Origin: an uncultured virus (IMG/VR IMGVR_UViG_3300008262_000171)
Lineage: Duplodnaviria; Heunggongvirae; Uroviricota; Caudoviricetes
DNA: 64,000 nt
Reading direction: 5' to 3' (one strand)
Virus record (IMG/VR): IMGVR_UViG_3300008262_000171
The position numbers and the translations under genes were made by a program. The notes beneath the pieces are model-generated. The model had not been told where the DNA came from and ran no database searches. It worked only from the letters and a program-made list of their open reading frames with translations. Positions 40,597 to 63,983 of the stretch are shown piece after piece (the stretch's first letter is position 1; every line of letters begins with the position of its first letter).

Positions 40597-40656
40597 TTCC
40601 CCAAATAGGGGGAAATTTTTCCGGCAAAATTTTTGGTTTCTAAAGTTTTTTAAAAT

Positions 40657-40672
40657 TGTATCAGGAAATACA
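40657..40672 (+). promoter_or_regulatory. NtcA binding box
   Basis: TGTA-TCAGGAAA-TACA matches GTA-N8-TAC; candidate -10 elements TATACT 40687-92 and TATAAT 40704-09. Confidence 0.7.
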
Positions 40673-40719
40673 CACAAAACTACCTATATACTATGAATAG
40701 GGGTATAATAATCCCCTAA

Positions 40720-40972
40720 CGTTCATCCTATGACTAAAGCACTTTTGCTTTTAGCATGGGTTCCACTTCTTTCTGTTGCTTCACCACAACTTATCAAAAC
40801 TGAATATCCAGTCACAATAAGTTGTAATGCAGCGTGGGAACTAATGGACATCGTTAAAAACGACGATGTTGTTCACCAAAAGATTGAAGACCGATTGCTA
40901 TTAGAATTGCGAAAAGACGTAATTATAAAGTGCTAAAAATTAAATAGGACGGAAGTAAGCCGACTCGGAACG
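40720..40972 (+). ncRNA. Glutamine riboswitch-like aptamer 1 with an ORF in the P2 loop
   Basis: CGTTC(40720-24)/GAACG(40968-72) P1; TCCTAT(40726-31)/ATAGGA(40944-49) P2; core CGGAAGTAAGCCGAC. Confidence 0.65.
40730..40936 (+). CDS. 68-aa two-Cys peptide with a signal-peptide-like N-terminus, nested in aptamer 1
   Basis: MTKALLLLAWVPLLSVA...ISCNAAWELM...LLLELRKDVIIKC. Confidence 0.7.
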   Translation: MTKALLLLAWVPLLSVASPQLIKTEYPVTISCNAAWELMDIVKNDDVVHQKIEDRLLLELRKDVIIKC

Positions 40973-40975
40973 GAA

Positions 40976-41144
40976 CGTTCATCTATGGAAGCAATCATTT
41001 TAACTTGCTTACAGGCACAATTAATGGTTGGGAGAATTTACACAGTAGATATTCCCAAACAAGCAAAGAATGATTTAATTTGGGAGATTAAACAAGTCTC
41101 TCCAAAAACTTGTCCCATAGACGCAAAAGCCGACTGAAGGAACG
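40976..41144 (+). ncRNA. Glutamine riboswitch-like aptamer 2 (Downstream-peptide type) with an ORF in the P2 loop
   Basis: CGTTC(40976-80)/GAACG(41140-44) P1; TCTATGG(40982-88)/CCATAGA(41115-21) P2; core CGCAAAAGCCGACTGAAGGAACGC; directly upstream of a YRG peptide gene. Confidence 0.75.
40985..41137 (+). CDS. 50-aa two-Cys peptide nested in aptamer 2
   Basis: MEAIILTCLQAQLMVGRIYTVDIPKQAKNDLIWEIKQVSPKTCPIDAKAD*; the stop lies inside the aptamer core. Confidence 0.65.
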   Translation: MEAIILTCLQAQLMVGRIYTVDIPKQAKNDLIWEIKQVSPKTCPIDAKAD

Positions 41145-41176
41145 CTCTTTAGCCTCAAAATTAAGGAGAAAACCTA

Positions 41177-41335
41177 ATGTCTAAAGTCGTTTATAGAGGT
41201 TGTCAGTACGACACCGAAAATGCAAAGAAAGAGTATGTGTCATGGTATAACCAAACACACGCTCCTGCTCATCCACAAAACACATATCGTGGAGTAGCAT
41301 ACCGTCCTTGCAGAAATGCGGAGGTGCAGAAGTGA
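41177..41335 (+). CDS. DUF4278-like small protein (52 aa)
   Basis: MSKVVYRGCQYDT...NTYRGVAY, two YRG motifs; AAGGAG RBS. Confidence 0.8.
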   Translation: MSKVVYRGCQYDTENAKKEYVSWYNQTHAPAHPQNTYRGVAYRPCRNAEVQK

Positions 41336-41430
41336 AAAAACTTAACTTCCTACAACTTATTAAAGAACAAAAACAAAAAGAAGATCGTCGTCATCAAGCA
41401 CAACTAGCACAACTAGTTGGAGCAAAGTGA
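41332..41430 (+). CDS. 32-aa basic helical peptide
   Basis: GTGA overlap, GGAGGT RBS; MKKLNFLQLIKEQKQKEDRRHQAQLAQLVGAK. Confidence 0.6.
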   Translation: MKKLNFLQLIKEQKQKEDRRHQAQLAQLVGAK

Positions 41431-41758: not shown

Positions 41759-41918
41759 TAGAGCACGAGAACTCGTGAAATTGCTTGAAAGACTTGTCAA
41801 GCAAGATCACCTTTATACTGAAGAAAGAATTGTAGAAATGAAACAACAACTGCAAGCAGTAAAGAAAGAACTTGCAGAACTGGAAGCAAAAACATCAAAA
41901 GGATTTGGAAAGAAATGA
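41751..41918 (+). CDS. Small coiled-coil hypothetical protein (55 aa)
   Basis: MTSRARELVKLLERLVKQDHLY...SKGFGKK; ATGA-coupled to thyX. Confidence 0.7.
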   Translation: MTSRARELVKLLERLVKQDHLYTEERIVEMKQQLQAVKKELAELEAKTSKGFGKK

Positions 41919-42550
41919 CAGTAAAACTCATCAGTGTGACACCCGATGCAGAAAAAACAATGGCGTATGTTGCTAGAGTTAGCAACCCTGCGAATCAAGA
42001 CAACGAAAACTATGCCAAGTTGCTTGCTTATTGTATTAAGCATAATCATTGGTCTGTTTTTGAGCAGTCTTTTATGACTCTTGAGATCGAAACAAATCGT
42101 GGCATCGCAGCACAAATTTTACGACACAGGAGTTTTACATACCAAGAATTTTCACAACGTTATGCAGATTCTTCTTTGCTAGGTGAGGAAATTCCTGTAC
42201 CAGAACTTCGTCGTCAGGACACCAAGAATCGTCAGAATTCCACTAATGATCTTCCTGAAGAACTAAAAGCAGACTTGTGGTTGAAGATCAATGACCATTT
42301 TAAGGCAGGTATGGAACTCTACAAGCAACTTCTAGATGCTGAGGTGGCAAAGGAGTGTGCAAGATTTGTATTGCCCTTGGCGACCCCCACACGCATCTAT
42401 ATGAGTGGATCATGCAGGTCATGGATACATTATATCAATCTTCGTTCTGCAAATGGAACTCAGAGAGAGCATATGGATATTGCACTTGATTGTAAGAAAG
42501 TGTTTATCGAACAATTTCCAACGGTATCAGACGCCCTTGAGTGGATCTAA
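41915..42550 (+). CDS. thyX: FAD-dependent thymidylate synthase
   Basis: HWSVFEQ; ThyX motif RHRSFTYQEFSQRY; KECARFVLP. Confidence 0.97.
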   Translation: MTVKLISVTPDAEKTMAYVARVSNPANQDNENYAKLLAYCIKHNHWSVFEQSFMTLEIETNRGIAAQILRHRSFTYQEFSQRYADSSLLGEEIPVPELRRQDTKNRQNSTNDLPEELKADLWLKINDHFKAGMELYKQLLDAEVAKECARFVLPLATPTRIYMSGSCRSWIHYINLRSANGTQREHMDIALDCKKVFIEQFPTVSDALEWI

Positions 42551-63288: not shown

Positions 63289-63360
63289 GGGAGTGTCGCC
63301 TATGGGTTAAGGCCATCGCCTTATAAGCGGTAGAACTGGGTTCAAGTCCCAGCATTCCCA
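63289..63360 (+). tRNA. tRNA-Ile(UAU)
   Basis: Acceptor GGGAGTG/CATTCCC; anticodon arm ATCGC-CTTATAA-GCGGT; T arm CTGGG-TTCAAGT-CCCAG. Confidence 0.88.
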
Positions 63361-63407: not shown

Positions 63408-63785
63408 ATGATTGGTAAGTGTTTATCTTGTGAAAAAAACTTTAAGTATATGCCGTCACAATCGACAGGTAAATACTGTTCTCGTAAATGTCAGCAAGAC
63501 AACCAAGATCGTGAATATATCACTGAATGGTTGAATGGCACAAAATCTGGTATAATAAGGGGTAATTCACTCTCTGGTTATGTTAGAAGACATTTGCTAG
63601 AAGAAGCAGGATACAAATGCTCTCAATGTAGTTGGGCAGGTGTCAATCCAGTTTCTGGAAATACAACACTAGAAATCGACCACATTGATGGTAATAGGAA
63701 GAATGCTAGTAAAGACAATCTTCGAGTATTATGCCCTAACTGTCATTCATTAACTCCTACTTATCGAGCGTTGAATATAAAATAG
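63408..63785 (+). CDS. HNH homing endonuclease within the tRNA cluster
   Basis: CLSC..KYCSRKC; CSQC; LEIDHIDGNRKN....NLRVLCPNCHS. Confidence 0.9.
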   Translation: MIGKCLSCEKNFKYMPSQSTGKYCSRKCQQDNQDREYITEWLNGTKSGIIRGNSLSGYVRRHLLEEAGYKCSQCSWAGVNPVSGNTTLEIDHIDGNRKNASKDNLRVLCPNCHSLTPTYRALNIK

Positions 63786-63857
63786 CTGGTTTAGCTCTCT
63801 GGCGAAAGCACTGCCCTCATAAGGCAAGACAGGTCGGTTCGATCCCGACAACCAGCA
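63785..63857 (+). tRNA. tRNA with CAU anticodon (elongator Met or Ile2)
   Basis: Acceptor GCTGGTT/AACCAGC; loop CTCATAA; T arm GTCGG-TTCGATC-CCGAC. Confidence 0.85.
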
Positions 63858-63899: not shown

Positions 63900-63983
63900 G
63901 GGGCGGTGACGTAACTGGTAGCCGTATCAGACTTAAAATCTGCTGGGAGTATTCCCGTGGGGGTTCGATTCCCCCTCGCCCTA
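63900..63983 (+). tRNA. tRNA-Leu(UAA)
   Basis: Loop CTTAAAA; long variable arm GGGAGTATTCCC; T arm GGGGG-TTCGATT-CCCCC. Confidence 0.9.

Follow-up and report, generated by a model that had tools for sequence, protein, structure and literature searches.

Protein genes in the P2 loops of tandem glnA-type aptamers in a phage leader

Can the loop of a riboswitch helix give room to a whole protein gene? The question is raised by a 64,000-nucleotide (nt) stretch of DNA from an uncultured virus of the Caudoviricetes (IMG/VR record IMGVR_UViG_3300008262_000171), the whole of which is referred to here as the window. At positions 40720-41144 the window carries two apparent glnA-type glutamine aptamers in tandem, and in each of them the loop of the P2 hairpin is replaced by a protein gene. 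Aptamers are usually treated as compact and non-coding, as covariance searches assume, and such searches thus miss a whole class. The two units are made up of the following elements (ORF, open reading frame; aa, amino acids; bp, base pairs).

40720-40725, + strand: opening CGTTCA of unit 1, consisting of the P1 5' strand CGTTC (40720-40724) and A40725
40726-40731, + strand: P2 5' strand TCCTAT of unit 1, overlapping the ORF1 start codon (ATG at 40730)
40730..40936, + strand: nested ORF1 of 68 aa, taken from the ORF list, inside the 212-nt insert of unit 1
40944-40949, + strand: P2 3' strand ATAGGA of unit 1, forming 6 bp with 40726-40731
40950-40972, + strand: core of unit 1, CGGAAGTAAGCCGACTCGGAACG, read from the sequence
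40944..40972, + strand: 3' half of aptamer 1, comprising the P2 3' strand, the core CGGAAGTAAGCCGACTCG and the P1 3' strand GAACG (40968-40972)
40973-40975, + strand: linker GAA between the units, read from the sequence
40968..40980, + strand: junction GAACG-GAA-CGTTC, able to form a hairpin that competes with both P1 helices
40976-40981, + strand: opening CGTTCA of unit 2, consisting of the P1 5' strand CGTTC (40976-40980) and A40981
40982-40988, + strand: P2 5' strand TCTATGG of unit 2, containing the ORF2 start codon (40985-40987)
40985..41137, + strand: nested ORF2 of 50 aa, taken from the ORF list, spanning the 126-nt insert of unit 2
41115-41121, + strand: P2 3' strand CCATAGA of unit 2, forming 7 bp with 40982-40988
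41122-41144, + strand: core of unit 2, CGCAAAAGCCGACTGAAGGAACG, holding the TGA stop of ORF2 (41135-41137)
41115..41144, + strand: 3' half of aptamer 2, comprising the P2 3' strand, the core CGCAAAAGCCGACTGAAG and the P1 3' strand GAACG (41140-41144)

All strings and positions reported in the initial annotation of this locus were recovered in place in the window sequence. The last six codons of ORF2 (I-D-A-K-A-D) and its TGA are encoded by the P2 3' strand together with the aptamer core, making this a dual-coding stretch.

Aptamer identity and distribution of the layout

The initial annotation had taken both units for glutamine aptamers of the glnA type, and this identity is upheld by comparison with related phages, in which the halves match classical tandem aptamers at the same genomic position. 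The core of unit 1 is identical to the classical unit-1 cores of two relatives (L004 and L005; L numbers are our locus handles), both of which match RF01739, and the core of unit 2 recurs unchanged in classical short aptamers at the unit-2 place, for example in L007 and L037. The conserved junction and E-loop sequence of glnA RNA (ACGGAAGUA ... GAAGGAACG) is present; classical phage aptamers with identical cores align to the RF01739 consensus. In both units P1 (CGUUC/GAACG) encloses the aptamer, a feature that is partly imposed by the search patterns and that, being invariant in 20 of 20 aligned long units, is uninformative for covariation. The P2 stem directly follows CGUUCA and closes before the CGG/CGC junction, with a loop far longer than in seed-like members. 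From the literature, glnA RNA is further defined by a long-range linchpin G-C pair or pseudoknot and by selective binding of L-glutamine (PMC6212724, PMC6698751). Finally, the units occupy the 5' leader of a putative DUF4278/IF17-like gene, a Shine-Dalgarno (SD) sequence and an ORF with a YRG motif lying 32 nt downstream. Of the classical relatives themselves, unit 1 of L003-L006 and unit 2 of L001 are matched by RF01739 at 28.9-35.6 bits, two of the five reaching the gathering score of 35. As for the glutamine-II type (Downstream-peptide, RF01704), its host-type core CGCAGUUCGA...GGAACGGGGA with the flanking P2 helix is absent, the phage cores differing from the host cores, and among the phage loci RF01704 finds only unit 1 of P-SSM2, at a sub-threshold 26.4 bits against a cut-off of 33.

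In blastn comparisons with phage genomes, the best-conserved piece is the contiguous junction at 40944-40990, which shows 91-97.5% identity in P-SSM2, P-SSM3, P-SSM4 and P-RSM3. At the same genomic position, Synechococcus phage S-CREM1 carries a pair of classical aptamers with short P2, followed downstream by a gene whose product begins MSQATYRG; a table by the authors of S-CREM1 lists an annotated glnA riboswitch (RF01739, 44.0 bits). The first aptamer is classical in DSL-LC02, DSL-LC03, S-SRM01 and P-SSM2 as well, and the second has the layout of the window, with a homologous ORF of ~50 aa inside P2. Both units of P-SSM4 bear genes, as in the window, and its unit-2 P2 reads TCCTTA/TAAGGA where that of the window reads TCTATGG/CCATAGA. 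The cultured carriers are P-SSM4 and P-SSM2 on Prochlorococcus, and S-SRM01 and DSL-LC02/03 on Synechococcus. To judge by sequence, the window units are glnA-type aptamers, a type whose P2 loop is occupied by a gene in some cases and not in others. Just upstream of the split leader of P-SSM4 lies a manA RNA (L002 719-904; RF01745, 184 bits).

A scan of IMG/VR for the junction pattern returned at least 120 stretches and, with six phage loci and the window, led to 126 loci being examined. Since the pattern required a tandem junction with one core type, the counts below do not measure prevalence.

Short unit 1, long unit 2: 46 of 126 loci
Short unit 1, short unit 2: 31 of 126 loci
Long unit 1, long unit 2: 19 of 126 loci
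Long unit 1, short unit 2: 9 of 126 loci
One unit unresolved: 21 of 126 loci

The split layout is thus present in 74 of the 105 listed loci with both units resolved. All 100 long units of the listed loci (68 of unit 2 and 32 of unit 1) hold an ATG-initiated ORF of 49-69 aa that spans the insert, and in every one the ORF starts 3-6 nt into the P2 5' strand, leaving no room for an SD. The ends are similarly regular: in unit 2 the stop codon is a TGA or TAA located at core position +13 for 65 of 68 ORFs and lies within the P2 3' strand for the other three, and in unit 1 the reading frame ends either 5-17 nt short of the core or at the TAA of CGGAAGTAA. The P2 loop measures 126-212 nt in the window and 140-225 nt in its relatives (counting the stem strands), as against 3-15 nt in classical aptamers.

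Outside viral records the phage-type core is rare, with five matches in 185,579 species genomes. Four of these lie on contigs of 3.8-12 kb from metagenome-assembled genomes, and the fifth lies on a 189,106-bp contig of a Prochlorococcus single-cell assembly; viral record L053 likewise measures 189,106 bp. Picocyanobacterial hosts carry compact glutamine-II aptamers, RF01704 being found in 27 of 41 genomes at lengths of 52-81 nt throughout, and the compact host pattern is present in 138 of 401 genomes. Allowing a long gap in that pattern gives matches in 52 of 401 genomes, compared with ~45 for a reversed-pattern control in a rough hand count, and none of ten fetched long-gap matches has P2 pairing, GGAACG or an ORF. 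The split form was not seen in the host genomes sampled, a search that used one exact host core word and would miss other cores.

P2 pairing, folding and the nested genes

The initial annotation had remarked that the two P2 stems of the window differ in sequence and nevertheless pair perfectly. This pairing was followed across the homologous loci, where in long unit 2 it exceeds both slide and shuffle controls. Pairs were counted with the strands anchored on CGTTCA and the core, the controls being partners slid by 1-3 nt and partner shuffles. Among 33 distinct strand combinations of long unit 2, 159 of 165 cells (96%) are paired in the first 5 bp, compared with 35-53% after sliding; none of 2000 partner shuffles reaches the observed pairing, and positions 3-5 show three to four standard pair types. 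A MAFFT alignment of 63 long unit-2 sequences placed the 5' strands by their ATG and not by stem register, and was therefore unusable for column pair counts. Column-based counting was instead performed on 20 long unit-2 sequences of one register, in which 95.9% of the cells are paired (30-62% when slid) and the covariation score is 0.111, compared with 0.079 after shuffling, none of 500 shuffles scoring as high. Coding constraint cannot explain this covariation, because the 5'-strand bases concerned precede the ATG, and so encode no part of the nested ORF, and it is with the codon just ahead of the DAKAD tail that they covary. Since the layout recurs in so many loci, since all of the ORFs span their inserts, and since P2 pairing beats both kinds of control, the split layout is more than chance.

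In one subgroup of unit-2 ORFs (MEQLFL...KKGCFIDAKAD; L065 718-889, L042/L052 and L060), P2 extends to 11-20 consecutive pairs. This extended helix forms between the first and last codons of the ORF, which indicates that RNA pairing is selected within the coding sequence.

When each window unit is folded alone, P1 and P2 are both present in the minimum free energy (MFE) structure. Forcing P1 and P2 costs a median of 0.43-0.64 kcal/mol in long units, against 0.47 in short units. When the interior of the insert is dinucleotide-shuffled the median cost is 2.56 kcal/mol; set against its shuffles, the natural sequence comes out at rank 0-1 of 12 for 24 of 31 units. The region 40718-41200 as a whole folds with a z-score of -5.56, with both P2 helices in its MFE structure. 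Furthermore, over 93 long units the start-codon region has a median unpaired probability of 0.50-0.57 in nascent RNA of 40-100 nt, compared with 0.29 in the full unit.

These results bear on the idea that the inserts have destroyed the aptamers, and that the halves persist as recombination boundaries or as translation or termination signals for the small genes. The halves do flank the cassettes like repeats, the presence or absence of the cassettes is modular, and the split units are called by no covariance model. Against this, P2 is kept by compensatory change across 140-225 nt, the cores are still identical to those of classical aptamers and the natural inserts are biased towards allowing closure; boundaries acting at the DNA level would have no need of covariation between the 5' strand upstream of the ATG and the codon before the DAKAD tail. 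We therefore hold such a relic to be very improbable.

That the inserts code for protein, as the initial annotation had proposed, was examined by median pairwise dN/dS with the codons overlapping P2 and the core trimmed (CDS, coding sequences).

Window ORF2 family: 34 distinct CDS, median dN/dS 0.275
Window ORF1 family: 21 distinct CDS, median dN/dS 0.288
Marine unit-1 family: 9 distinct CDS, median dN/dS 0.131
Remaining unit-2 ORFs (U2_other): 29 distinct CDS, median dN/dS 0.497

The ratio accordingly lies at 0.13-0.29 in three of the four families and at 0.50 in the fourth, which agrees with the proposal. Both unit-1 families show an excess of variation at the third codon position (as in one case with 28, 20 and 45 variable columns at positions one, two and three), and in the unit-2 alignments variation is near saturation at all three positions. 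On this evidence of their evolution, the inserts are real protein-coding genes under purifying selection.

The ORF1 family has 32 invariant columns, both Cys included. Its product begins with a hydrophobic segment resembling a signal peptide and continues as a two-helix hairpin that Cys32 and Cys68 flank; the AlphaFold2 (AF2) model has helices at 8-15, 32-44 and 50-67 and a predicted local distance difference test (pLDDT) score of 69.5. In the ORF2 family C8, C43, D46, A47 and D50 are invariant in 56 sequences, and the AF2 model is again a two-helix hairpin (helices 8-20 and 25-37; pLDDT 86.1). Homologues of ORF2 form 106 clusters at 90% identity, and a profile search with the unit-2 family reached at least 310 clusters at 50% identity, the best 150 listed being 44-110 aa long; exactly two Cys are present in 146 of these best 150 representatives. 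The unit-2 and marine unit-1 families are homologous (hhalign probability 91%, E 1e-6, with Cys aligned to Cys), and the window ORF1 family has no significant hhalign link to either (probabilities of 12% and 0.4%, respectively). A Pfam search of the nested proteins gave no match. PHROGs holds nested families only as function-unknown entries (phrog_504 and phrog_6471), with no match for the two ORFs of the window itself. Foldseek returned nothing from the PDB at E<=0.001 for the nested protein models, and in the ESM Atlas these models match only unnamed clusters, with scores of 0.83-0.85. The layout therefore supplies a genomic context for hundreds of orphan small phage proteins, those of phrog_504, phrog_6471 and the 50%-identity clusters included.

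A glutamine-codon leader peptide was considered for the conserved LQAQ of the window ORF2 family and was rejected, LQAQ being missing from members of the marine family. Several 50-aa homologues carry the Joint Genome Institute (JGI) label 'indole-3-glycerol phosphate synthase', almost certainly a mis-annotation at this length.

RNA libraries add a further view of the inserts. In three of four metatranscriptomes, contigs of the Logan collection extend over most of the region with an identity of >=85% (word shares of 0.08-0.16; the fourth run covers almost nothing), with the limits that such contigs cannot show transcript ends, strand or level and that DNA carry-over is possible. Some of these contigs join across the inserts, which is what would be expected if the insert were excised from the RNA by splicing or processing so as to rebuild a compact aptamer. 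The joints, however, carry 8-20 other letters in place of the insert, exactly at the borders of the P2 loops (40731-40943 and 40982-41121), and are thus short-hairpin alleles of related phages, that is, replacements. On this ground splicing was rejected; moreover, classical short alleles exist as DNA in viral contigs and the inserts are conserved coding genes, so that excision in any form has a negligible probability. The short-hairpin alleles point to recent gain or loss of the cargo in natural populations.

The same alleles favour a different explanation, namely that the aptamers are normal and the P2 loop is a tolerated landing site, where small genes share a strong early promoter without any selected coupling; the start in P2 and the stop in the core would then be owed to the compactness of the phage genome. 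The loop of the stem-loop is dispensable for ligand binding according to the structural account in PMC6698751, the presence of ORFs is modular to the extent that all four combinations of short and long units occur, inserts are exchanged for short hairpins exactly at the loop borders, and the expression platform is unchanged. However, a start within P2 with no room for an SD is found in each of the 100 long units. The family also looks tied to this site rather than free-living: of its best 150 representatives, 102 end in the aptamer-encoded D-A-x(1-2)-D tail (four read through it), and all seven loci checked for a DAND-tailed subtype are nested, the core there being of another variant that our DNA pattern could not have reached. 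Finally, whatever the origin of the genes, a ribosome cannot travel along a nested ORF without unfolding the aptamer, so that a degree of coupling is physically inevitable. Passive carriage of the genes is, in our judgement, somewhat unlikely.

The leader and a candidate glutamine switch

Whether the split aptamers could act as a switch depends on the leader in which they lie, whose remaining elements are given here.

40680..40716, + strand: sigma70-like promoter, with -35 CTACCT (40680-40685), an 18-nt spacer and -10 TATAAT (40704-40709)
41145..41176, + strand: expression platform, in which CTCTTTA (41145-41151) can pair with the SD region TAAGGAG (41162-41168)
41177..41335, + strand: downstream gene, SD-led, for a 52-aa protein with a YRG motif, DUF4278-like/IF17-like (a borderline assignment)

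The -35 of relatives is TTGACT, at the position of CTACCT in the window, and the arrangement of TTGACT, a spacer of 17-18 nt and a TATAAT ending 7-10 nt before CGTTCA recurs across 115 distinct upstream regions. From the position of the promoter, the mRNA should begin at the aptamer, a few nt before P1, which would put the AUG of ORF1 within ~20 nt of the 5' end and without an SD. The -10 of the window stands in the loop of an inverted repeat (GGGG 40700-40703/CCCC 40713-40716), whose arms covary among relatives (GGGG/CCCC, AGAGG/CCTCT, GTGTTA/TAACAC, AGGTC/GACCT); possible roles are those of an operator or of a hairpin in DNA or RNA. Boxes of the form GTA-N8-TAC, which we take to be the NtcA-type motif, occur just upstream of the aptamer in some marine phage loci, overlapping the -10 (P-SSM4, L002 977-990; upstream regions L010, L053, L056, L076, L092, L106 and L114). 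They are also present in host glutamine-II leaders (L135-L144); the window has no NtcA box and has the GGGG...CCCC repeat instead. An NtcA-type motif upstream of host IF17-like genes is described in PMC6212724.

The linker after unit 2 has a median length of 32 nt behind short and long units alike, with a possible helix of median 6-7 bp between its 5' end and the SD region, and an SD followed by a Y[RK]G ORF comes after unit 2 in 35 of 36 loci where that unit is short and in 48 of 54 where it is long. That neither the platform nor the downstream gene changes with the length of unit 2 speaks for a working switch. The 52-aa protein scores 22.5 bits (E 1.5e-4) against PF14105 (DUF4278), below the cut-off of 25.3, and matches phrog_5049 (E 1e-11). 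It shares the N-terminal YRG motif and would on that ground act like an IF17-like protein; its membership of the family is borderline. Glutamine riboswitches are described as turning on IF17 and IF17-like DUF4278 genes (Klahn 2018, PMC6212724), and by analogy with that work the CTCTTTA/SD pairing would be the switch element.

Further downstream, a small ORF at 41308-41430 (containing KKLNFLQLIKEQKQKE) overlaps the end of the YRG gene and recurs among the loci; in L115 it directly follows the platform, replacing the YRG gene. In P-SSM2 and S-SRM01 the leader is followed, after a few small ORFs, by a thymidylate synthase gene, and the 211-aa ORF at the matching position of the window (41915-42550) presumably resembles ThyX. 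Three tRNA genes are found at the window end (63289-63360, 63785-63857 and 63900-63983).

The reading that we favour, at a probability of roughly 0.5, is that of a working tandem glutamine switch whose P2 loops house genes, with translation of the nested ORFs and closure of the aptamers being mutually exclusive. It is from the anatomy that we infer glutamine binding, nested-ORF translation, the coupling of the two and the direction of each output. The leader would be that of a T4-like cyanophage, transcribed from an early-type sigma70 promoter with the mRNA starting right at P1, and the tandem riboswitch would control translation of the downstream IF17-like (YRG/DUF4278-like) gene. The distal P2 loop, playing no part in ligand binding, would have been taken over by genes for small two-Cys helical-hairpin proteins. 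Indeed, the stem-loop after CGUUCA is described as a plain A-form hairpin away from the binding site in both solved classes of glutamine riboswitch, and it carries a UUCG tetraloop in the glutamine-II crystal (PMC6698751). A ribosome on a nested ORF would unwind the aptamer, and a closed aptamer, with P2 and a glutamine-stabilised P1, would bury the start codon; the two states would exclude each other because the AUG lies in P2, because there is no SD, and because the ORF ends in or beside the 3' strands or the core. Open aptamers, to be expected soon after transcription or when glutamine is low, would allow the nested proteins to be made; closure on glutamine would then turn on the IF17-like gene. 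In this way the layout suggests a simple physical means of linking a metabolite sensor to the movement of ribosomes, so that a single leader could give two opposite outputs.

A number of observations weigh against this switch. In unit 1, P2 is 95% paired with little variation, and 23 of 2000 shuffles reach the observed value; in the 20-sequence register class of unit 2, two pairs and four cells are changed on both sides, and given shared ancestry the number of independent compensatory events is modest. In the MFE structure of 40718-41200 neither P1 helix forms, the junction hairpin GAACG-GAA-CGUUC and other pairings taking its place, a loss that would fit a P1 requiring the ligand and is equally evidence, within the folding model, of a marginal P1. 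The accessibility trend is reversed in window unit 1 (0.14-0.25 in nascent RNA, 0.40 in the full unit). To these are added the higher dN/dS of the remaining unit-2 ORFs and the limits of the RNA-library contigs, and the start codon in P2 could reflect genome compaction rather than regulation. Finally, neither RF01739 nor RF01704 matches the window at the gathering score, or the region 40600-41250 at E<=10, and a covariance model built from the classical phage aptamers (R1) matches only the 3' halves of the window units, each with a spurious nearby 5' partner.

The outcome with covariance models is that foreseen in the initial annotation, which had expected long inserts to hide the aptamers from them. 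The RF01739 miss is due to insert length, and since the hit window of Infernal cannot span the inserts, R1 is no test of the full fold. With that restriction, the best R1 match in the whole window is the 3' half of aptamer 1 (25.8 bits, E 2e-4) and the second-best is that of aptamer 2 (13.1 bits, E 0.3). The remaining weak Rfam matches in the window (PhotoRC-II, miRNA and others) are at chance level; that of PhotoRC-II falls inside nested ORF2 (41040-41117; 16.7 bits against a gathering score of 39, E 6.9) and is probably due to chance.

The position of the ORF2 stop admits another form of coupling, in which ribosomes translating ORF2 as far as the core UGA, 39 nt short of the YRG start, would open P1 and the anti-SD segment and so activate the YRG gene, glutamine mainly gating access to the ORF2 start. 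The constancy of the stop at core +13 (65 of 68 long unit-2 cases) would suit such a relay, as would its place directly before the P1 3' strand and the CTCTTTA segment able to pair with the SD; expression downstream of a riboswitch that depends on an upstream ORF (uORF) is described for M. tuberculosis ppe2 (PMC11260477). However, the platform is no different in phages whose unit 2 is classical and short and which lack ORF2, so that a relay is not needed, and a gap of ~39 nt with a strong SD of its own is unlike termination-reinitiation. We regard activation by ORF2 translation as improbable.

The switch that we prefer may be taken one step further, to a ligand-gated toggle antagonised by the ribosome, with two opposite outputs, in which the nested proteins would be partners in the phage takeover of host nitrogen status, for example by modulating glutamine synthetase or the inactivating factor. 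This extension is tentative, and we put it at rather less than even odds. If it were true, the leader would be the first natural riboswitch to have conserved protein genes as integral, dual-coded parts of its aptamers. With host-like NtcA boxes and an IF17-like gene in the same leader, the system adds to the ways in which cyanophages may read or manipulate host nitrogen status.

Comparison with known systems

Protein genes within structured RNA have a parallel in group I introns, which house ORFs in their peripheral loops, as in td of phage T4 with I-TevI. Both systems have a protein gene in the loop of a structured RNA, a T4-like phage and long-range helices that close around the gene. The intron, however, is a ribozyme with a homing endonuclease, whereas here a ligand sensor is combined with a two-Cys protein that bears no sign of a nuclease or mobility function. 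In leader-peptide attenuation (trp, his), the position of a ribosome on a short upstream ORF picks the RNA fold and thereby controls the downstream gene. Such leaders sense charged tRNA through regulatory codons and are otherwise unconstrained in sequence; here the sensor is an aptamer and the products are conserved. Eukaryotic thiamine pyrophosphate (TPP) riboswitches, as presented in PMC3597705, likewise rely on pairing between sequence-distant segments, but they act on splicing and have no coding gene inside the aptamer helix.

The classical tandem glnA RNA of cyanophages and cyanobacteria (RF01739) shares with the window the P1 helix CGUUC/GAACG, the junction cores CGGAAGUAAGCCGAC and CGCAAAAGCCGACUGAAGGAACG, the 3-nt linker, a promoter directly upstream and an SD-led YRG gene ~32 nt downstream. 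It differs in that here the P2 loop is a conserved protein gene, with its start in P2 and its stop in or beside the core. The original paper on glutamine binding is said to be that of Ames and Breaker in 2011, and the tandem arrangement of glnA RNAs was noted by Weinberg 2010 (PMC2864571).

The initial annotation had known of no description of such an architecture. For glutamine riboswitches this stands, no account of ORFs inside them having been found in the full-text literature searched; for aptamers in general it does not, a short translated uORF inside a B12 aptamer having been published (PMC11260477). This uORF, uMetE2 in the metE B12 aptamer of M. tuberculosis (Kipkorir et al. 2024), is the closest precedent found for an aptamer-nested ORF. 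Like the ORFs of the window, it lies inside the boundaries of the aptamer, in its case within a peripheral extension. The account given there presumes that translation and ligand-induced folding exclude each other, and downstream expression changes when the uORF is translated. With its 16 codons, uMetE2 has an SD of its own, a UUG start and limited conservation, and it is housed in the P9-P10 extension of a large aptamer (PMC11260477). The nested genes described here, in contrast, encode proteins of 49-69 aa under purifying selection with at least 310 clusters at 50% identity, occur in tandem, and fill the loop of a core helix in an aptamer of ~50 nt, with whose binding core they share codons.

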